From Parcubacteria group bacterium (GTDB taxonomy: Bacteria; Patescibacteriota; Minisyncoccia; Phycocordibacterales; UBA2135): a stretch of 64,000 nt of DNA. Below the pieces are notes generated by a model that had not been told where the DNA came from, searched no databases, and saw only the letters and a list, made by a program, of their open reading frames with translations. Where the stretch lies: positions 169,180 to 233,179 of the forward strand of contig JACPBB010000001.1 of assembly GCA_016180525.1 (NCBI GenBank), given 5' to 3'. Each line of letters opens with the position of its first letter. The first letter of the stretch is position 1. Positions 22,202 through 28,345 of the stretch are shown piece after piece. Both the position numbers and the translations under genes were made by a program.

Positions 22202-24244
22202 ATGGCCGACGAAAAACAGAAGCGTCTGTGCGATGAAGTTCGTATTGCGCTTCTTTCACGCATAGATTATTGCGGAGACGGATATCGCAAACGCCTCATG
22301 GAATGTGGATTTAATCTCGCAAAGCTGGAACAAGTCGCTTTCCTTGTGTTGGTGGGTGGGCTTGTCCACAATGAAGGTCTTAAGGAACGAATTCAGGAAG
22401 AGCTTGCGGAAGAGAAGGTGAAGCCAAAGAAAAAGCGACGCAGTCGCGCAGATGTCATTGACCGTGTTTTAAGTGAGGTCGCGGAAGAACTTGCAAAACA
22501 AATTCCAAGTATCACTCTACCCGGTACCGAAAAGAAAATTCGTCTGTATATCATGACCTCCCCAGCCTATGATGGAAAATATGGGGCAGCAATTGCCGAA
22601 AGACTCGCTGTTCTCCGCCCAGACGATATTCGCCACTGGGCAAAGGCAAGCGAGCATTTGCCACTTGAGCCGGCACCGCATGAAAAATTCAAAGAAATTG
22701 CCTGTCTCGTACCGAGGACAACTTCATTCCGTTCAAAATATGACTCCACTGCAGTAGACCGAGTTGTTGAAGACTATCTGAATACTGCGAAAAAGGCGTA
22801 CGCACCTGTCGTTATTGTCGGTTGCTTTAATGTAAATTTTCACAAGCCGGCAGGCGGTGAAAGCTCGATTCATATCATTGGACTTCCCGGATCAAGCCGT
22901 ATTGAAGAGAACCGCGCTTCAGAAAACCAAGTTGGTTTGACAATACTTAGAATCACTAATGACGGAAACCTGTTCGTAAAATCTCACAACTTCAATGACC
23001 TAGTGGTCAGAGAGCGTGAGTCAATCAATATTTCGCCGAAGTATAACAAGACAACACAGCGCGTGCTTGAACAGTTCAAGCACCGGACATGGTGGACGCT
23101 GGGTCTTCTTTCGGAAAAACTTGGCGTACCCCGCGACGAACTCAAGAAAACGCTTAACAGTATTGTAAAGCGACCGAGGCTCAATCCTCCGCTTAAATAT
23201 GACGAATCTTCGCAGCGATATTTTATTCCTCGTCCGTGGATCCAGAAAAATGTTACATATCCCTATCCGTGGCCGACGAAAGAATTTATTGAAGAGCGGT
23301 TTTTGTCTTTTGGCTGCTTGCACGCTCTGTGCCGACATACCGCGCACGAGTTCATGCTTGATGAAATGCCAAAACTTATGCTCAAATATAACATTCATCA
23401 CCTCATTGGTGGTGGAGACTTCATTGAAGGCCGTTCACACGGTCTTCCGGAAAATGGAGAATTGCTTTTTGGCGCCACGTATGACGCGCAAGAGAAGTTT
23501 GCCGCATGGCTTGTGGCAGAAGTCCTTCTCCGAGTCTTTAAAGAGCGTATTCAAAAATTGACGCAAACTGCGGACAAGAAACTGTTTACCGATGAAGCTG
23601 CCGTTCTTAACTTCATCAAAGCGACCCTTCCTGATTTTTGGTACATTCCTGGAAATCATGACGAATGGACTGAAAGAGTCGCGTTTGAAGCTCTGACGGT
23701 GTTCCGTTATGAACTGTTTCAACTCGTTCGTAGGGGTGTAACAGAGACGCTGAAAAACACAGGTCTTGTTGTACCGGCAATCCTTGAACAATTCATTGAA
23801 AGCACTATGGTGAAAATGAGCCCTCTGGACGCCGCTATGCATTCGTCAGGCGTTTCTCTGTCGCTGAACCATCTTCACATGGGCAGAACGCAGACAAAAA
23901 CGATTCGGAGTCAAGCGCTCTTGGGCGCAACGACTGCCGTTATCAACATTCACGCGAATTTTCACACCGCTCTTTCTATGTCTCGCTTTGACCCGAACAT
24001 TGGCCAGCGCGTCGTTCAGCAGATTGGAACACTCAAGCTTCGCTCAGGATTTGAAGACCGAAAAGGAAAAAAAGTTGACTTTGGAGTCGGATATCTCCGA
24101 GTCGGACTAGAGCAGCGTGGTAATGAAAAAGTTATCCTGATGCACGAGGTCGCGCTTTTCGGAGATCCGGCAAAATATCAGAGTATCGAAAATAGAGGTT
24201 TTATTGAATCTTTCAAAAAGAAAATTTTCGGAAAAAAAATCTAA
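22202..24244 (+). CDS. large hypothetical protein with C-terminal calcineurin-like metallophosphoesterase motifs (GD-x2-[DE]…GNHDE…H-x-N-F-H)
   Basis: 680 aa; …HHLIGGGDFIEG… about 65 aa …IPGNHDEW… then …INIHANFH…. The N-terminal ~400 aa have no recognisable family. Preceded by a TTGAGA-N18-TACAAT promoter-like sequence; followed by a strong terminator. Confidence 0.55.
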   Translation: MADEKQKRLCDEVRIALLSRIDYCGDGYRKRLMECGFNLAKLEQVAFLVLVGGLVHNEGLKERIQEELAEEKVKPKKKRRSRADVIDRVLSEVAEELAKQIPSITLPGTEKKIRLYIMTSPAYDGKYGAAIAERLAVLRPDDIRHWAKASEHLPLEPAPHEKFKEIACLVPRTTSFRSKYDSTAVDRVVEDYLNTAKKAYAPVVIVGCFNVNFHKPAGGESSIHIIGLPGSSRIEENRASENQVGLTILRITNDGNLFVKSHNFNDLVVRERESINISPKYNKTTQRVLEQFKHRTWWTLGLLSEKLGVPRDELKKTLNSIVKRPRLNPPLKYDESSQRYFIPRPWIQKNVTYPYPWPTKEFIEERFLSFGCLHALCRHTAHEFMLDEMPKLMLKYNIHHLIGGGDFIEGRSHGLPENGELLFGATYDAQEKFAAWLVAEVLLRVFKERIQKLTQTADKKLFTDEAAVLNFIKATLPDFWYIPGNHDEWTERVAFEALTVFRYELFQLVRRGVTETLKNTGLVVPAILEQFIESTMVKMSPLDAAMHSSGVSLSLNHLHMGRTQTKTIRSQALLGATTAVINIHANFHTALSMSRFDPNIGQRVVQQIGTLKLRSGFEDRKGKKVDFGVGYLRVGLEQRGNEKVILMHEVALFGDPAKYQSIENRGFIESFKKKIFGKKI

Positions 24245-24401: not shown

Positions 24402-25190
24402 ATGGCGACAAAATTCGCACTGCATAAAATAAAAGTAATAATGCCAGATGATACGGTGTTTACCTTCTGGTTTGACGGCAACGGAAAAATTACTGCAGGA
24501 AACGGAACATTTGATTCCCCCGTTCCAAATGCCTTCTCGCTCGTACAAGTCAAAGACTGTCCGTCGGCAACACCGACATGCACCAGCGTTTGCTATGTGC
24601 ACAACCTTGAAAAAGCGGAGGCTGAGGTGCACGGCAAATATGCCCACAACAGCGTCACCATTCGTAAGATTCTTCAGAATGCCATTTATCGGCAAGCAAC
24701 TGAATTTGAATTTGTTCATTGGATAAAGAAAAACAATATCCGAGAATTCAGATGGCACGTCTCCGGTGATGTCTTTTCAAAAGAATACGCAAAATTTGTT
24801 GTATCGGTGTGTAATTTAGCTCCGGATGTTTTATTTTGGATTTATACGCGCTCATTTAATTTTGTTGAAACACTGCAAGAAGCACCCAATTTGGTTGTAA
24901 ATCTCTCGGCAGACAGAGACAATTATAAAAAAGCACTTGAAATAAACAGAAAATACGGAGTCCGTATCTGCTATCTTTCTCTTGAAGGAGAGATTCCTAA
25001 GGATTTGCCAAAAGGGTCCGTCATTTTCCCAAACTACACGCTTCGCGGAAGAGATTTGCCCGTTCCTACAGAAGCTCCATTTTGGAAACAGCTTACGCTG
25101 AAACAAAAAAAGATGGTGTGCCCGCCGGATTTCTTCGGCCAAAGCGAAAAACTCCGCTGCGGCCCGTGCCGGAAGTGCATGGTTCATTAA
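24402..25190 (+). CDS. phage Gp37/Gp68 (DUF5131)-like Cys-cluster protein
   Basis: 262 aa; N-terminal C-x6-C-x3-C-Y (…DCPSATPTCTSVCYVHN…), then …WHVSGDVF… and …VLFWIYTRSFN…, resembling the DUF5131 layout W.NP..GC…S.GC..CYA … GDLF … W.ILTKRP. C-terminal CPPD…C-x2-C-x2-C. Assignment from memory of the family pattern. Confidence 0.45.
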   Translation: MATKFALHKIKVIMPDDTVFTFWFDGNGKITAGNGTFDSPVPNAFSLVQVKDCPSATPTCTSVCYVHNLEKAEAEVHGKYAHNSVTIRKILQNAIYRQATEFEFVHWIKKNNIREFRWHVSGDVFSKEYAKFVVSVCNLAPDVLFWIYTRSFNFVETLQEAPNLVVNLSADRDNYKKALEINRKYGVRICYLSLEGEIPKDLPKGSVIFPNYTLRGRDLPVPTEAPFWKQLTLKQKKMVCPPDFFGQSEKLRCGPCRKCMVH

Positions 25191-25214
25191 CCCCGCAATA
25201 GCGGGGTTTTTTCT
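25191..25214 (+). terminator. Intrinsic terminator (CCCCGC-AATA-GCGGGG + TTTTTT)
   Basis: Perfect 6-bp GC stem right after the stop. Confidence 0.8.
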
Positions 25215-25273
25215 TGCATTTATTTCTTATTTACCTATACTCCTAAACAGAACTTGAAATTCGGAAGCATCAG

Positions 25274-26152
25274 GTGTCTGAGACAATATCGCAAGAAAAA
25301 TTTCTTACATTAATGCGTTTGTGCTGCACAAAAGAGACAAGCGCGAGTCCCGATACGTGGACTCCTAAAAATCCCCTGTGGGGGCATTGTGCCGCTGTTT
25401 CCCTTGTCGCTCAAAACATGTTTGGAGGTACACTTCTGCGTGTCTCTCTTACAGATACCCCGTTTAAAGCTATGCGGTCACACTACTTCAATAAATTACC
25501 CGATGGAACCGTCATCGATTTTACCAAAGAACAGTTTGGGAAATTATATCCAAGTGGTTTAAAAACAAAGACACGAACCTGCGGAAGCATTCTTGAACAT
25601 GAAAGCACCAGAAACCGCTATAAAAAACTTGCTCTCCGTTTTGCCTATGAAATGACTCAAAATGTGCTCCTTTTGCACCCTTTATATGGGGCATGTTTTG
25701 AAGCCGCACTTGATTCCGGATGCCAAAAACTATGGGTTGGCTCCGTACTCGTGCATAATGGAGTTGTTGTCTCTTCGGGTAATAACCATCCTGTAGAAGA
25801 GCTCGCGCATGTCTGCAAACCAAAGTGTATTCGCTTCAATATTCAATCAAGAACTGAATCAATGATTGGTGCGTGTGGGCACGCGGAAGAATACGCCATG
25901 TGGGAGGCTATCCAAAAAGGAATCCCGCTTTCTGAGTGCGATATGTATGTCGCTATGGTCGGCACAGACGGATTGCCGCGGTTTAGAAGCGACCCTTCTG
26001 TTGGATATACTTGCCTACGATGCGCAACAGCAATGCGTTTGGCTGGTATCAAAAATGTATATATTGATATTGTTGACCATTGGGAAAAAATCAGTATTAA
26101 GGATGCACTACAAAGCGCATTGCAATATGCTCTTGGTGAAAAGAAACTATAA
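25274..26152 (+). CDS. two-domain protein: unknown N-terminal domain + C-terminal dCMP/cytidine-deaminase-like zinc-binding domain
   Basis: The C-terminal half reads …SGCQKLWVGSVLVHNGVVVSSGNN…ACGHAEEYAMWEAI…YTCLRCATAMRLAGIKNVYI…. These are the CDA-fold H-A-E and C-x2-C zinc motifs plus the dCMP-deaminase AGIK.V tail. The N-terminal ~140 aa (…NPLWGHCAAVSLVAQNMFGG…) are unassigned. Confidence 0.6.
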   Translation: MSETISQEKFLTLMRLCCTKETSASPDTWTPKNPLWGHCAAVSLVAQNMFGGTLLRVSLTDTPFKAMRSHYFNKLPDGTVIDFTKEQFGKLYPSGLKTKTRTCGSILEHESTRNRYKKLALRFAYEMTQNVLLLHPLYGACFEAALDSGCQKLWVGSVLVHNGVVVSSGNNHPVEELAHVCKPKCIRFNIQSRTESMIGACGHAEEYAMWEAIQKGIPLSECDMYVAMVGTDGLPRFRSDPSVGYTCLRCATAMRLAGIKNVYIDIVDHWEKISIKDALQSALQYALGEKKL

Positions 26153-26249
26153 GTAATATGTGTTAAAATTCCAGCGTTTGCTGGATTTTTTTGCAAAAAC
26201 ATTTTTTCCCTATATACTATTCACAGATTATTCAAACGAGGCACCAGAG

Positions 26250-27299: not shown

Positions 27300-27671
27300 T
27301 TACTTTTCTGCCATATGCTTCATCACTAAAAAGAAGCTTTTGTCGGGTCCATTTTTTATTTCCACTTCATTCGCAACAACAACTCGCTTTCTAATGCCGA
27401 GCATTTCCGTAAGCATAAATACTCCTCCCATATCAAATTTTGAACCATAACTTTTCTCGTCATACCAAATATGCACCTCATCGGCATCTAAAATTGCCTG
27501 AAAATTTGTCCTACAGATATTCACTCCGCCCGTCGGGTCATCTTGTTCCGTATCCAGAGTCGGCCAGTGAACACGGTGTCCTTGTTTTTCAAGCTGCTTT
27601 ACGTACTTTGCAATTTTAGCGTTCGTTTTTTTACTTGCGTTCGTGACCGGACAAACAAGAAATATTTTCAT
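27300..27671 (-). CDS. nucleoside 2-deoxyribosyltransferase-like / DNPH1(Rcl)-like protein
   Basis: 123 aa; MKIFLVCPVT… Rossmann-like N-terminus typical of the family, and a …D…SYGSKFDMGGVFML… segment at the expected position. Family-level only. Confidence 0.45.
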   Translation of the reverse strand: MKIFLVCPVTNASKKTNAKIAKYVKQLEKQGHRVHWPTLDTEQDDPTGGVNICRTNFQAILDADEVHIWYDEKSYGSKFDMGGVFMLTEMLGIRKRVVVANEVEIKNGPDKSFFLVMKHMAEK

Positions 27672-28345
27672 GCGCTCATTCCTACCGAAAAGTACTTTTT
27701 CAATCGCTCCACCGTTTCAGACCAGAGTTTTCTATCAATTTTAGGGTCCATGTCGCGCCAATTAGCACGCTCGGGCCTACCAAGCGCTTCGGCAAGACGA
27801 GTACGGAAATATTGTGCCGGAACACCTTTCGGATCCCATATAATGTCAGTTTTTTGGTCAACACCGGGAGGCCTGGAGAGAAGATATCCATCTCCAATCT
27901 TTCCAACTCCTTCGGGAATTCCATTCGTTACAAAATTAAATTGCTCATATAAAGTTTCGGGAAAGTCCTGCAGCATTTTTGTAGTGAGGTCTACATGAGC
28001 GGGAACTATGTGTAAGTGCGCATGCTTCACTGTCTGTCCGACTATTCCATGTTCAAACAATATTACAGACCGTTCGCCAACAGTAGAACCATTATATGCT
28101 CCATATTCATCGTGAACCAAATCCTCTACGTACAACAACAAATGAGTTAATTTTACTTGCTCTTTTTCTGTAAGTAAATTCATACAGATTACATGACGTT
28201 TCGGGAATACAAGCACATGTCCACCGTCAGTAATCTGCCCCAGTGTCGCGATAACAAAAAATTCATTGGTTTCTGTAATAATACGCTCTTTAAATGTTTC
28301 GCGATTGCAGAACGGACAATCTTTTTCCATACATTTCTTCTCCAA
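27668..28345 (-). CDS. HIT-family nucleotide hydrolase/transferase
   Basis: Histidine triad HAHLHIVP; N-terminal CPFC; overlaps the downstream gene by 4 nt (operon). Confidence 0.75.
   Translation of the reverse strand: MEKKCMEKDCPFCNRETFKERIITETNEFFVIATLGQITDGGHVLVFPKRHVICMNLLTEKEQVKLTHLLLYVEDLVHDEYGAYNGSTVGERSVILFEHGIVGQTVKHAHLHIVPAHVDLTTKMLQDFPETLYEQFNFVTNGIPEGVGKIGDGYLLSRPPGVDQKTDIIWDPKGVPAQYFRTRLAEALGRPERANWRDMDPKIDRKLWSETVERLKKYFSVGMSA

Follow-up and report, generated by a model that had tools for sequence, protein, structure and literature searches.

Gene and domain organization

The 64,000 nucleotide window analyzed here (positions 169,180 to 233,179 of contig JACPBB010000001.1) is a segment of a Patescibacteria chromosome whose housekeeping genes encode a leucyl aminopeptidase, an RNase R-like protein, RmuC, PCMT, MPG, TruB, an M50 protease, an ABC exporter, GDH and UDG, along with one tRNA-Glu. 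Among these lies a gene for a two-domain protein in which a YunG domain (PF24585), a catalogued Pfam family with no assigned function, precedes a zinc deaminase domain of the cytidine deaminase (CDA) fold (PF00383). Its product is best described as a deoxycytidylate (dCMP)-deaminase-like enzyme with a putative second, thiol-based catalytic domain. Coordinates of the gene and its features are collected in Table 1.

Residues 9-124 match YunG over model positions 4-112 of 116 (E 1.9e-20, 73.6 bits, cut-off 27), and residues 141-264 match dCMP_cyt_deam_1 (PF00383; E 1.7e-9, 37.9 bits, cut-off 25). A first-pass annotation, made from the letters alone, had described this open reading frame (ORF) as a novel fusion carrying the CDA-fold motifs HAE, C-x2-C and an AGIK.V tail, with an N-terminal stretch of about 140 residues that matched nothing it recognized. 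The motifs are in the DNA as it read them, the tail being AGIKNVY, and the zinc ligands, taken directly from their codons, are invariant in 36 homologs. The N-terminal stretch, by contrast, is recognizable as YunG; it is not a known regulatory or oligomerization segment of dCMP deaminases. Proteins of the YunG family mostly stand alone. As for novelty, the fusion is genuine and half of it belongs to a family without assigned function, but it is not new to databases, in which at least 225 proteins with both Pfam labels are reported.

An identical protein in NCBI (MBI2108753.1, 279 aa), from a metagenome-assembled genome (MAG) of a Parcubacteria group bacterium on a 344-kb contig, is called from M14. 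We favor the GTG start because a Shine-Dalgarno-like box (GGAAG, 25263-25267) lies 6 nt upstream of it, the homolog alignment reaches residue 1, and confidence of the AlphaFold2 (AF2) model is high from approximately residue 7; the NCBI call is probably too short by 13 residues. Because the gene is flanked by terminator-like hairpins at 25189-25208 and 26170-26185, it is probably a single, monocistronic transcription unit. The promoter-like element ahead of it was read directly from the sequence and left unlisted by a consensus promoter scan, its -35 hexamer agreeing at just 3 of 6 positions. A similar element (TTGCAA-N16-TATACT, 26191-26218, forward strand) precedes the next gene, which encodes a Q_salvage-like protein and probably starts at ATG 26250; the layout of hairpin, T-run and TTGCA[TA]-N16-TATACT is thus common to both genes and may be a recurring promoter layout of this genome. 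At two related loci (L014 7947-8900 and L021 7935-8900, both reverse strand) an uninterrupted ORF of approximately 317 codons runs antisense to the fusion gene and exceeds it in length, probably as an artefact of composition.

Table 1. Features of the YunG-deaminase fusion gene and its immediate flanks (window coordinates)
Feature	Position	Strand	Details
Terminator-like hairpin of the upstream GP88-family gene	25189..25208	+	8 pairs, 6 G-C, T-run; isolates the fusion gene
Promoter-like element	25214..25241	+	TTGCAT-N16-TATACT
YunG + dCMP-deaminase-like fusion gene	25274..26152	+	complete; GTG start, TAA stop; 292 aa
YunG domain	25298..25645	+	residues 9-124; predicted minimal papain/transglutaminase-like fold
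Cys39 codon	25388..25390	+	tgt; putative nucleophile, first residue of helix 39-50
His70 codon	25481..25483	+	cac; putative general base, strand 69-74
Asp82 codon	25517..25519	+	gat; putative third triad residue, next short strand (D82 follows 80-81)
CDA-fold zinc deaminase domain	25694..26065	+	residues 141-264; closest to dCMP deaminases
Candidate structural second zinc site / phosphate-binding loop	25721..25876	+	C150, C181, C185, C201, K152, N171, R187, S192, R193; from invariance
H203-A-E205	25880..25888	+	cacgcggaa; zinc ligand and catalytic glutamate; aligns with HAE of S. mutans dCMP deaminase
C247-L-R-C250	26012..26023	+	tgc cta cga tgc; two zinc ligands; aligns with PCINC of 2hvv
Terminator-like hairpin (26170-26185) plus T-run	26170..26192	+	18 nt 3' of the fusion stop

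The deaminase domain

The C-terminal domain has the three-layer alpha/beta/alpha fold of the CDA-fold superfamily, and its zinc ligands H203, C247 and C250 and its catalytic E205 are invariant across 36 aligned fusion proteins, as are C150, K152, N171, C181, C185, R187, S192, R193, C201, E206, R249 and W270. A profile search against the PDB matched solely dCMP deaminases (2hvv, 4p9c, 1vq2), and the fusion deaminase domain shares with each of them an N-terminal S-x-C-x-[KR]-x-x-[VF]-G motif. The score against the NCBIfam ComEB equivalog (TIGR02571; 21.6 bits, E 1.7e-4) lies under the threshold of 219.45, and we therefore call the domain dCMP-deaminase-like and not a ComEB orthologue. On the strength of their invariance, C150, C181, C185 and C201 are a candidate structural second zinc site, and K152, R187, S192 and R193 are candidates for binding phosphate. 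C150 and C181 align with cysteines of the S. mutans enzyme (2hvv); a second, structural zinc site is a feature of the T4 and S. mutans dCMP deaminases.

An alternative is that this domain edits nucleic acid, deaminating C to U or A to I in tRNA, rRNA or DNA, with YunG recognizing or processing the substrate. We consider this improbable: TadA is absent from the PDB profile matches, all of which are dCMP deaminases; the N-terminal motif, here S-x-C-x-K-x-x-x-G, agrees with theirs; a Pfam scan of the protein detects neither THUMP, PUA nor any other RNA-binding domain; and the other partners of YunG described below (PyrF, NUDIX, a Cdd-type CDA) act on small molecules.

The YunG domain

In the N-terminal domain T22, W29, N33, C39, G51, D82, Q87, F88 and R115 are invariant among the 36 fusion proteins. 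Three residues stand as a putative catalytic triad: C39, which is also at least 90% conserved in standalone YunG; H70, which never varies among 38 YunG sequences and reaches at least 90% conservation in the fusions; and D82, invariant in both alignments. A zinc site made up of C18, C39, H70 and D82 was considered and ruled out, as C18 is not conserved in standalone YunG.

Modeled by AF2 with the family alignment, the whole protein has a predicted local distance difference test (pLDDT) score of 92.6 and a predicted template modeling (pTM) score of 0.90, and the N-terminal domain alone has a pLDDT of 94.7; the sole uncertain stretch, residues 195-199, is the loop just before the HAE motif. A pTM of this size suggests a defined packing of the YunG and deaminase domains. 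The structures set against the N-terminal domain (protein-glutaminase, PeiW, SseI, menin, arylamine N-acetyltransferases, SpvD, LapG, NTAQ1, TglA, OspI and factor XIII) are almost all papain/transglutaminase-like, and the predicted arrangement of a cysteine at a helix N-terminus followed by strands bearing histidine and aspartate, all conserved, fits such enzymes. For this region Pfam returned YunG, and Foldseek of the domain against the PDB, a remote-homology search proposed earlier, gave no significant match; phmmer and profile searches for a solved relative of YunG found none by sequence. We therefore predict a papain/transglutaminase-like fold for YunG with moderate, not strong, confidence, held back by the Foldseek result and reinforced by the C39/H70/D82 pattern. 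Searches of one literature library for yunG and YunG, either empty or swamped by the surname, yielded no paper on the family.

Distribution of the fusion and of YunG

A word-indexed search finds at least 225 homologs of the fusion protein, well beyond what chance would give; the 120 listed are all 272-345 aa long with the same architecture, and precomputed annotation assigns both PF24585 and PF00383 to 116 of them and PF24585 alone to 4. Their source names are 'hypothetical protein' or 'deoxycytidylate deaminase', and nearly all come from Parcubacteria/Paceibacterota-type MAGs, with a few in bins labeled Woesearchaeota or Micrarchaeota. With each GTDB species represented by one genome, a scan yields 54 loci, approximately 30 with the full-length fusion and 20 with a standalone YunG of 125-150 aa; standalone copies from Patescibacteria are 40-54% identical to the N-terminal domain, and members of the fusion family, at 40-69% identity, occur widely in Patescibacteria. 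Its presence on hundreds of independent contigs and in some 30 species-representative genomes rules out that the fusion arose through faulty assembly or a frameshift. The fusion is real, it is conserved, and its inheritance has apparently been vertical. Copies of the fusion or of standalone YunG on contigs binned as DPANN archaea (Woesearchaeota, Micrarchaeota, Parvarchaeota; L013, L029, L049, L059) are 35-52% identical to the Parcubacteria protein, reflecting either transfer between lineages of episymbionts or mis-binning.

YunG itself is known from Bacillota, Actinomycetota, Pseudomonadota, Patescibacteria and archaea. A hidden Markov model search of 1.84 billion representative proteins, with E up to 1e-3, returns 2,522 clusters of the family. 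Among the best 150 of these, 103 are standalone (up to 175 aa), 27 have the YunG-then-deaminase order of the window, and 20 are other proteins longer than 175 aa. The YunG domain of a Clostridia locus (L061), used as a search seed, gave one match. One 595-kb 'uncultured phage' record (LR756511.1, 238973-239332, reverse strand) also encodes a YunG-like domain, with 31-38% identity to the queries; it is the only phage match among 50,697 records. On two plasmids, of B. cereus (CP128127.1; L062 3363-4330) and Priestia megaterium (NZ_CP137805.1; L063 3998-5278), a standalone YunG gene and a gene for a GNAT N-acetyltransferase lie side by side in the same orientation, which could be a hint of acyl-group chemistry or could be chance; GNAT genes are common in Bacillus.

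Fusion partners of YunG

In a Pfam census of the same 150 clusters the single recurrent partner is PF00383 (17 of 150), with OMPdecase, DUF7768 and DUF1653 occurring once each. A second deaminase fusion has the reverse order: P0227, from Marsarchaeota, joins a cytidine deaminase to a following YunG and is represented by 13 near-identical sequences on many contigs. There are three clusters of PyrF-YunG fusions, in which the PyrF portion shares 55-60% identity with the ordinary PyrF of Patescibacteria; locus L043 encodes a NUDIX-YunG fusion, and P0137 combines YunG, with its cysteine changed to serine, and a borderline ASCH domain (E 0.001). From the two independent cytosine-deaminase fusions, together with those to PyrF and NUDIX, we infer that YunG belongs in pyrimidine-nucleotide metabolism, and this is the main new inference of the analysis.

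The C-terminal region of P0144 resembles a cytidine deaminase by eye (CGER...PCSDC) and was not counted, since Pfam finds nothing in it even at E up to 1; the DUF7768 region of P0183, which by eye may be like a nucleoside deoxyribosyltransferase, matches DUF7768 alone in Pfam at E up to 1 and nothing in the PDB by phmmer. In three other Patescibacteria proteins (P0307, P0320, P0382) PyrF is fused to a phosphoribosyltransferase (PF00156), presumably PyrE, in a UMP-synthase-like arrangement. A metagenomic protein of 313 aa (P0143) is a tandem YunG-YunG in which glycine replaces the cysteine of repeat 1 and repeat 2 keeps it, a pattern suggesting that YunG may act as a dimer with one active site.

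These partnerships also bear on the main rival to a catalytic role, namely that YunG is a nucleotide- or nucleoside-sensing or oligomerization module regulating an ordinary dCMP deaminase. Such a module would replace or supplement allosteric control by dCTP/dTTP, and in the other fusions it would regulate PyrF, cytidine deaminase or NUDIX. The partners all bind pyrimidine nucleotides yet differ in chemistry, as expected if they share a regulator; some YunG copies have no cysteine; the tandem protein with one Cys-less repeat is suggestive of dimeric binding modules; and the pTM of the AF2 model indicates tight packing against the deaminase. Set against this, the invariance of His70 and Asp82 and the near-invariance of Cys39 (at least 90%) at papain-like triad positions, in a family of some 2,500 clusters, form a pattern typical of catalysis, and most members, at 125-150 aa, stand alone and have no attached enzyme that they could regulate. 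On balance we judge a purely regulatory YunG unlikely, though it deserves serious consideration.

Genomic neighborhood

Clustering of ORFs over 45 loci reveals no recurrent partner gene, no family being found at more than 3 of the 45, and a Pfam census of 88 flanking genes (two on each side) at 24 fusion loci returns scattered, unrelated housekeeping functions, likewise with no recurrent partner. The sole recurrences, at 3 loci each, are a 680-aa protein without a Pfam match and the Q_salvage-like protein. A functional operon with either gene was considered and set aside in favor of local synteny among related Parcubacteria, and in the window the terminator-like hairpin downstream of the fusion gene separates it from the Q_salvage-like gene. 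One Yanofskybacteria locus carries a separate Cdd-type cytidine deaminase two genes away from the fusion gene; the fusion is therefore not simply the nucleoside deaminase of that organism.

The earlier leaning toward a toxin, defense or modification enzyme finds no support, and we regard a toxin or anti-phage deaminase that depletes dCTP/dCMP or mutates DNA as very improbable. Deaminase fusions are common in such systems, a gene of a phage-associated family lies directly upstream, and there are weak matches to the PADLOC dCTPase (E 0.0021) and NCBIfam anti-phage deaminase (E 0.056) models. These matches cover the zinc motifs only and fall below cut-off, at 15 bits with no qualifying stretch for dCTPase and 12.3 versus 400 bits for the NCBIfam model; MafB19-deam likewise scores 19.1 versus 27. 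Kinase-like domains and domains for secretion or toxin delivery are missing from the protein, the 24 loci show no immunity gene conserved beside it, and the gene is not organized as in polymorphic toxins of the MafB19, DddA or SsdA type, which form the C-terminal part of a delivery protein and are accompanied by an immunity gene. Instead it is probably transcribed on its own, with housekeeping genes around it (TruB, MPG, PCMT, M50 protease), and belongs to a family widespread in Patescibacteria. The value of the fusion lies in a testable functional lead for YunG and for nucleotide salvage in the candidate phyla radiation (CPR), not in a toxin or defense role.

Several neighboring genes merit description in their own right. 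The 680-aa protein (22202-24244, forward strand) has no Pfam match at E up to 0.01; by eye it shows the metallophosphoesterase-like motifs GGGDFIEG and GNHDEW. A 33% identical homolog adjoins the fusion gene in a Yanofskybacteria locus (L001) and another occurs in L022; it is an uncharacterized Patescibacteria family in loose synteny with the fusion gene. Directly upstream of the fusion gene (24402-25190, forward strand) is a chromosomal homolog of phage-associated GP88 (PF17338, E 1.8e-33; phrog_1392, unknown function). Downstream, the Q_salvage-like gene (26160, or ATG 26250, to 27245, forward strand) has a weak, sub-threshold Q_salvage/DUF2419 match (E 0.002-0.003), and the C-x7-C-x2-C-x5-C near its C-terminus (CPEMTEPNCRECPFQSVC) looks like the iron-sulfur cluster loop of HhH DNA glycosylases; its homologs also adjoin the fusion gene at two other loci, L022 and L058. 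Beyond it, on the reverse strand, lie a 123-aa ORF (27300-27671) with a weak nucleoside 2-deoxyribosyltransferase match (E 0.012, below cut-off) and, overlapping it by 4 nt, a gene for a 225-aa HIT-family protein (27668-28345). Together with the deaminase fusion, these last three genes make up a loose nucleoside/nucleotide-handling cluster.

Proposed function

Both domains, the conservation of their catalytic residues, the recurrence of the fusion and its housekeeping setting are directly supported, and the folds are those predicted above. The best explanation of the whole, which may well be correct although we hold it tentatively, is a cytoplasmic housekeeping enzyme of pyrimidine-nucleotide salvage in Patescibacteria, in which an active deaminase and a YunG triad module work on the same nucleotide. 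The C-terminal domain would be an active zinc deaminase of the dCMP-deaminase branch, converting a cytosine nucleotide to the uracil nucleotide by means of zinc-activated water and a proton shuttle through Glu205; we have moderate confidence that its substrate is dCMP or CMP, which are the likeliest candidates. The YunG domain, through Cys39-His70-Asp82, would perform or gate an adjacent step on the same pyrimidine nucleotide. Its likeliest chemistry would be thiol-mediated hydrolysis of an acyl or amide substituent, a suggestion we make with low confidence; N4-acylated cytosine nucleotides from degraded RNA are the leading guess for its substrate because removal of the acyl group would feed the deaminase directly, leaving a nucleotide that it could use. 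It is thus the substrate, the YunG reaction and the coupling of the two sites that we infer.

This proposal must be tempered by the absence of the cysteine from some YunG copies and by the PyrF fusion, which does not suit the N4-acyl-cytosine guess.

A bolder and rather doubtful extension is that YunG represents a new class of small thiol-dependent pyrimidine-nucleotide enzymes, for example an N4-acyl-(d)CMP amidohydrolase or some other catalyst working through an acyl-Cys or C6-thiol adduct. The window protein would then be a two-step channel by which genome-reduced episymbionts (Patescibacteria and some DPANN-type archaea) return modified cytosine nucleotides, scavenged from the RNA or DNA of their hosts, to the (d)UMP pool. 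If true, this would give a function to an orphan family of approximately 2,500 clusters, B. subtilis YunG among them.

Little is known about the salvage enzymes of Patescibacteria (CPR), which depend on scavenged nucleotides and are without the greater part of de novo nucleotide synthesis. On the housekeeping salvage reading the fusion protein would be a conserved piece of the CPR nucleotide-salvage toolkit and a first functional handle on the orphan YunG family, for which Cys-His-Asp in a papain-like scaffold suggests a concrete, testable chemistry. If modified cytosine nucleotides prove to be the substrates of the YunG step, a new reaction of salvage or sanitation would come to light, and the fusion could also offer a compact deaminase scaffold for engineering.

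Comparison with known systems

The closest solved relatives of the window protein, at very low sequence similarity, are bacterial and phage dCMP deaminases (EC 3.5.4.12): the ComEB-type enzyme of S. mutans (2HVV/2HVW), that of cyanophage S-TIM5 (4P9C) and T4 Cd (1VQ2). Classical dCMP deaminases are single-domain hexamers with an allosteric site for dCTP/dTTP; the window protein has, in addition to YunG, an insert of 14 residues ahead of C-x2-C and, at its C-terminus, an extension that is conserved (W270...Y285-A-x-G-E-K). The anti-phage dCTP deaminases (NCBIfam NF041025, PADLOC dCTPase) are likewise two-domain proteins with a C-terminal dCMP-deaminase-like zinc domain, in their case paired with an N-terminal kinase-like domain. 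The window protein differs from them in having YunG in place of the kinase-like P-loop domain, in its housekeeping context, and in scores far below cut-off.

With standalone YunG (PF24585, named after B. subtilis YunG; 125-150 aa) the N-terminal domain shares T22, W29, N33-P34, C39, G51-G52, H70, N73, D82, Q87 and R115; it is a full-length member of the family, distinguished by its covalent link to a deaminase. The plasmid copies of standalone YunG are labeled 'hypothetical protein' by PGAP. Relative to the papain/transglutaminase-like enzymes compared with it (protein-glutaminase 8Z3I/2ZK9, PeiW 8JX4, SseI 4G29, NTAQ1 3C9Q, OspI 3W30, arylamine N-acetyltransferases and the structural-genomics target Atu2299 2HLY), YunG is far smaller (approximately 120 aa), has no detectable sequence similarity and falls short of significance by Foldseek; the fusion partners of YunG are nucleotide enzymes rather than proteins or peptidoglycan. 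A possible functional analogue of the proposed YunG step, purely as a hypothesis, is E. coli YqfB, an ASCH-domain N4-acetylcytidine amidohydrolase, in that N4-acyl removal would precede cytidine deamination; YqfB has an unrelated PUA-like fold and no thiol nucleophile.

The nearest parallel in architecture is P0227 of Candidatus Marsarchaeota (NCBI MCL5434702.1), which holds the same two domain families in one chain and conserves HAE, PC-x2-C and the YunG Cys, His and Asp. Its deaminase is N-terminal and of a CDA-like branch, and its hosts are archaeal; because of this reversed order, different deaminase branch and archaeal hosts, we take it to be an independent fusion event joining the same two families.
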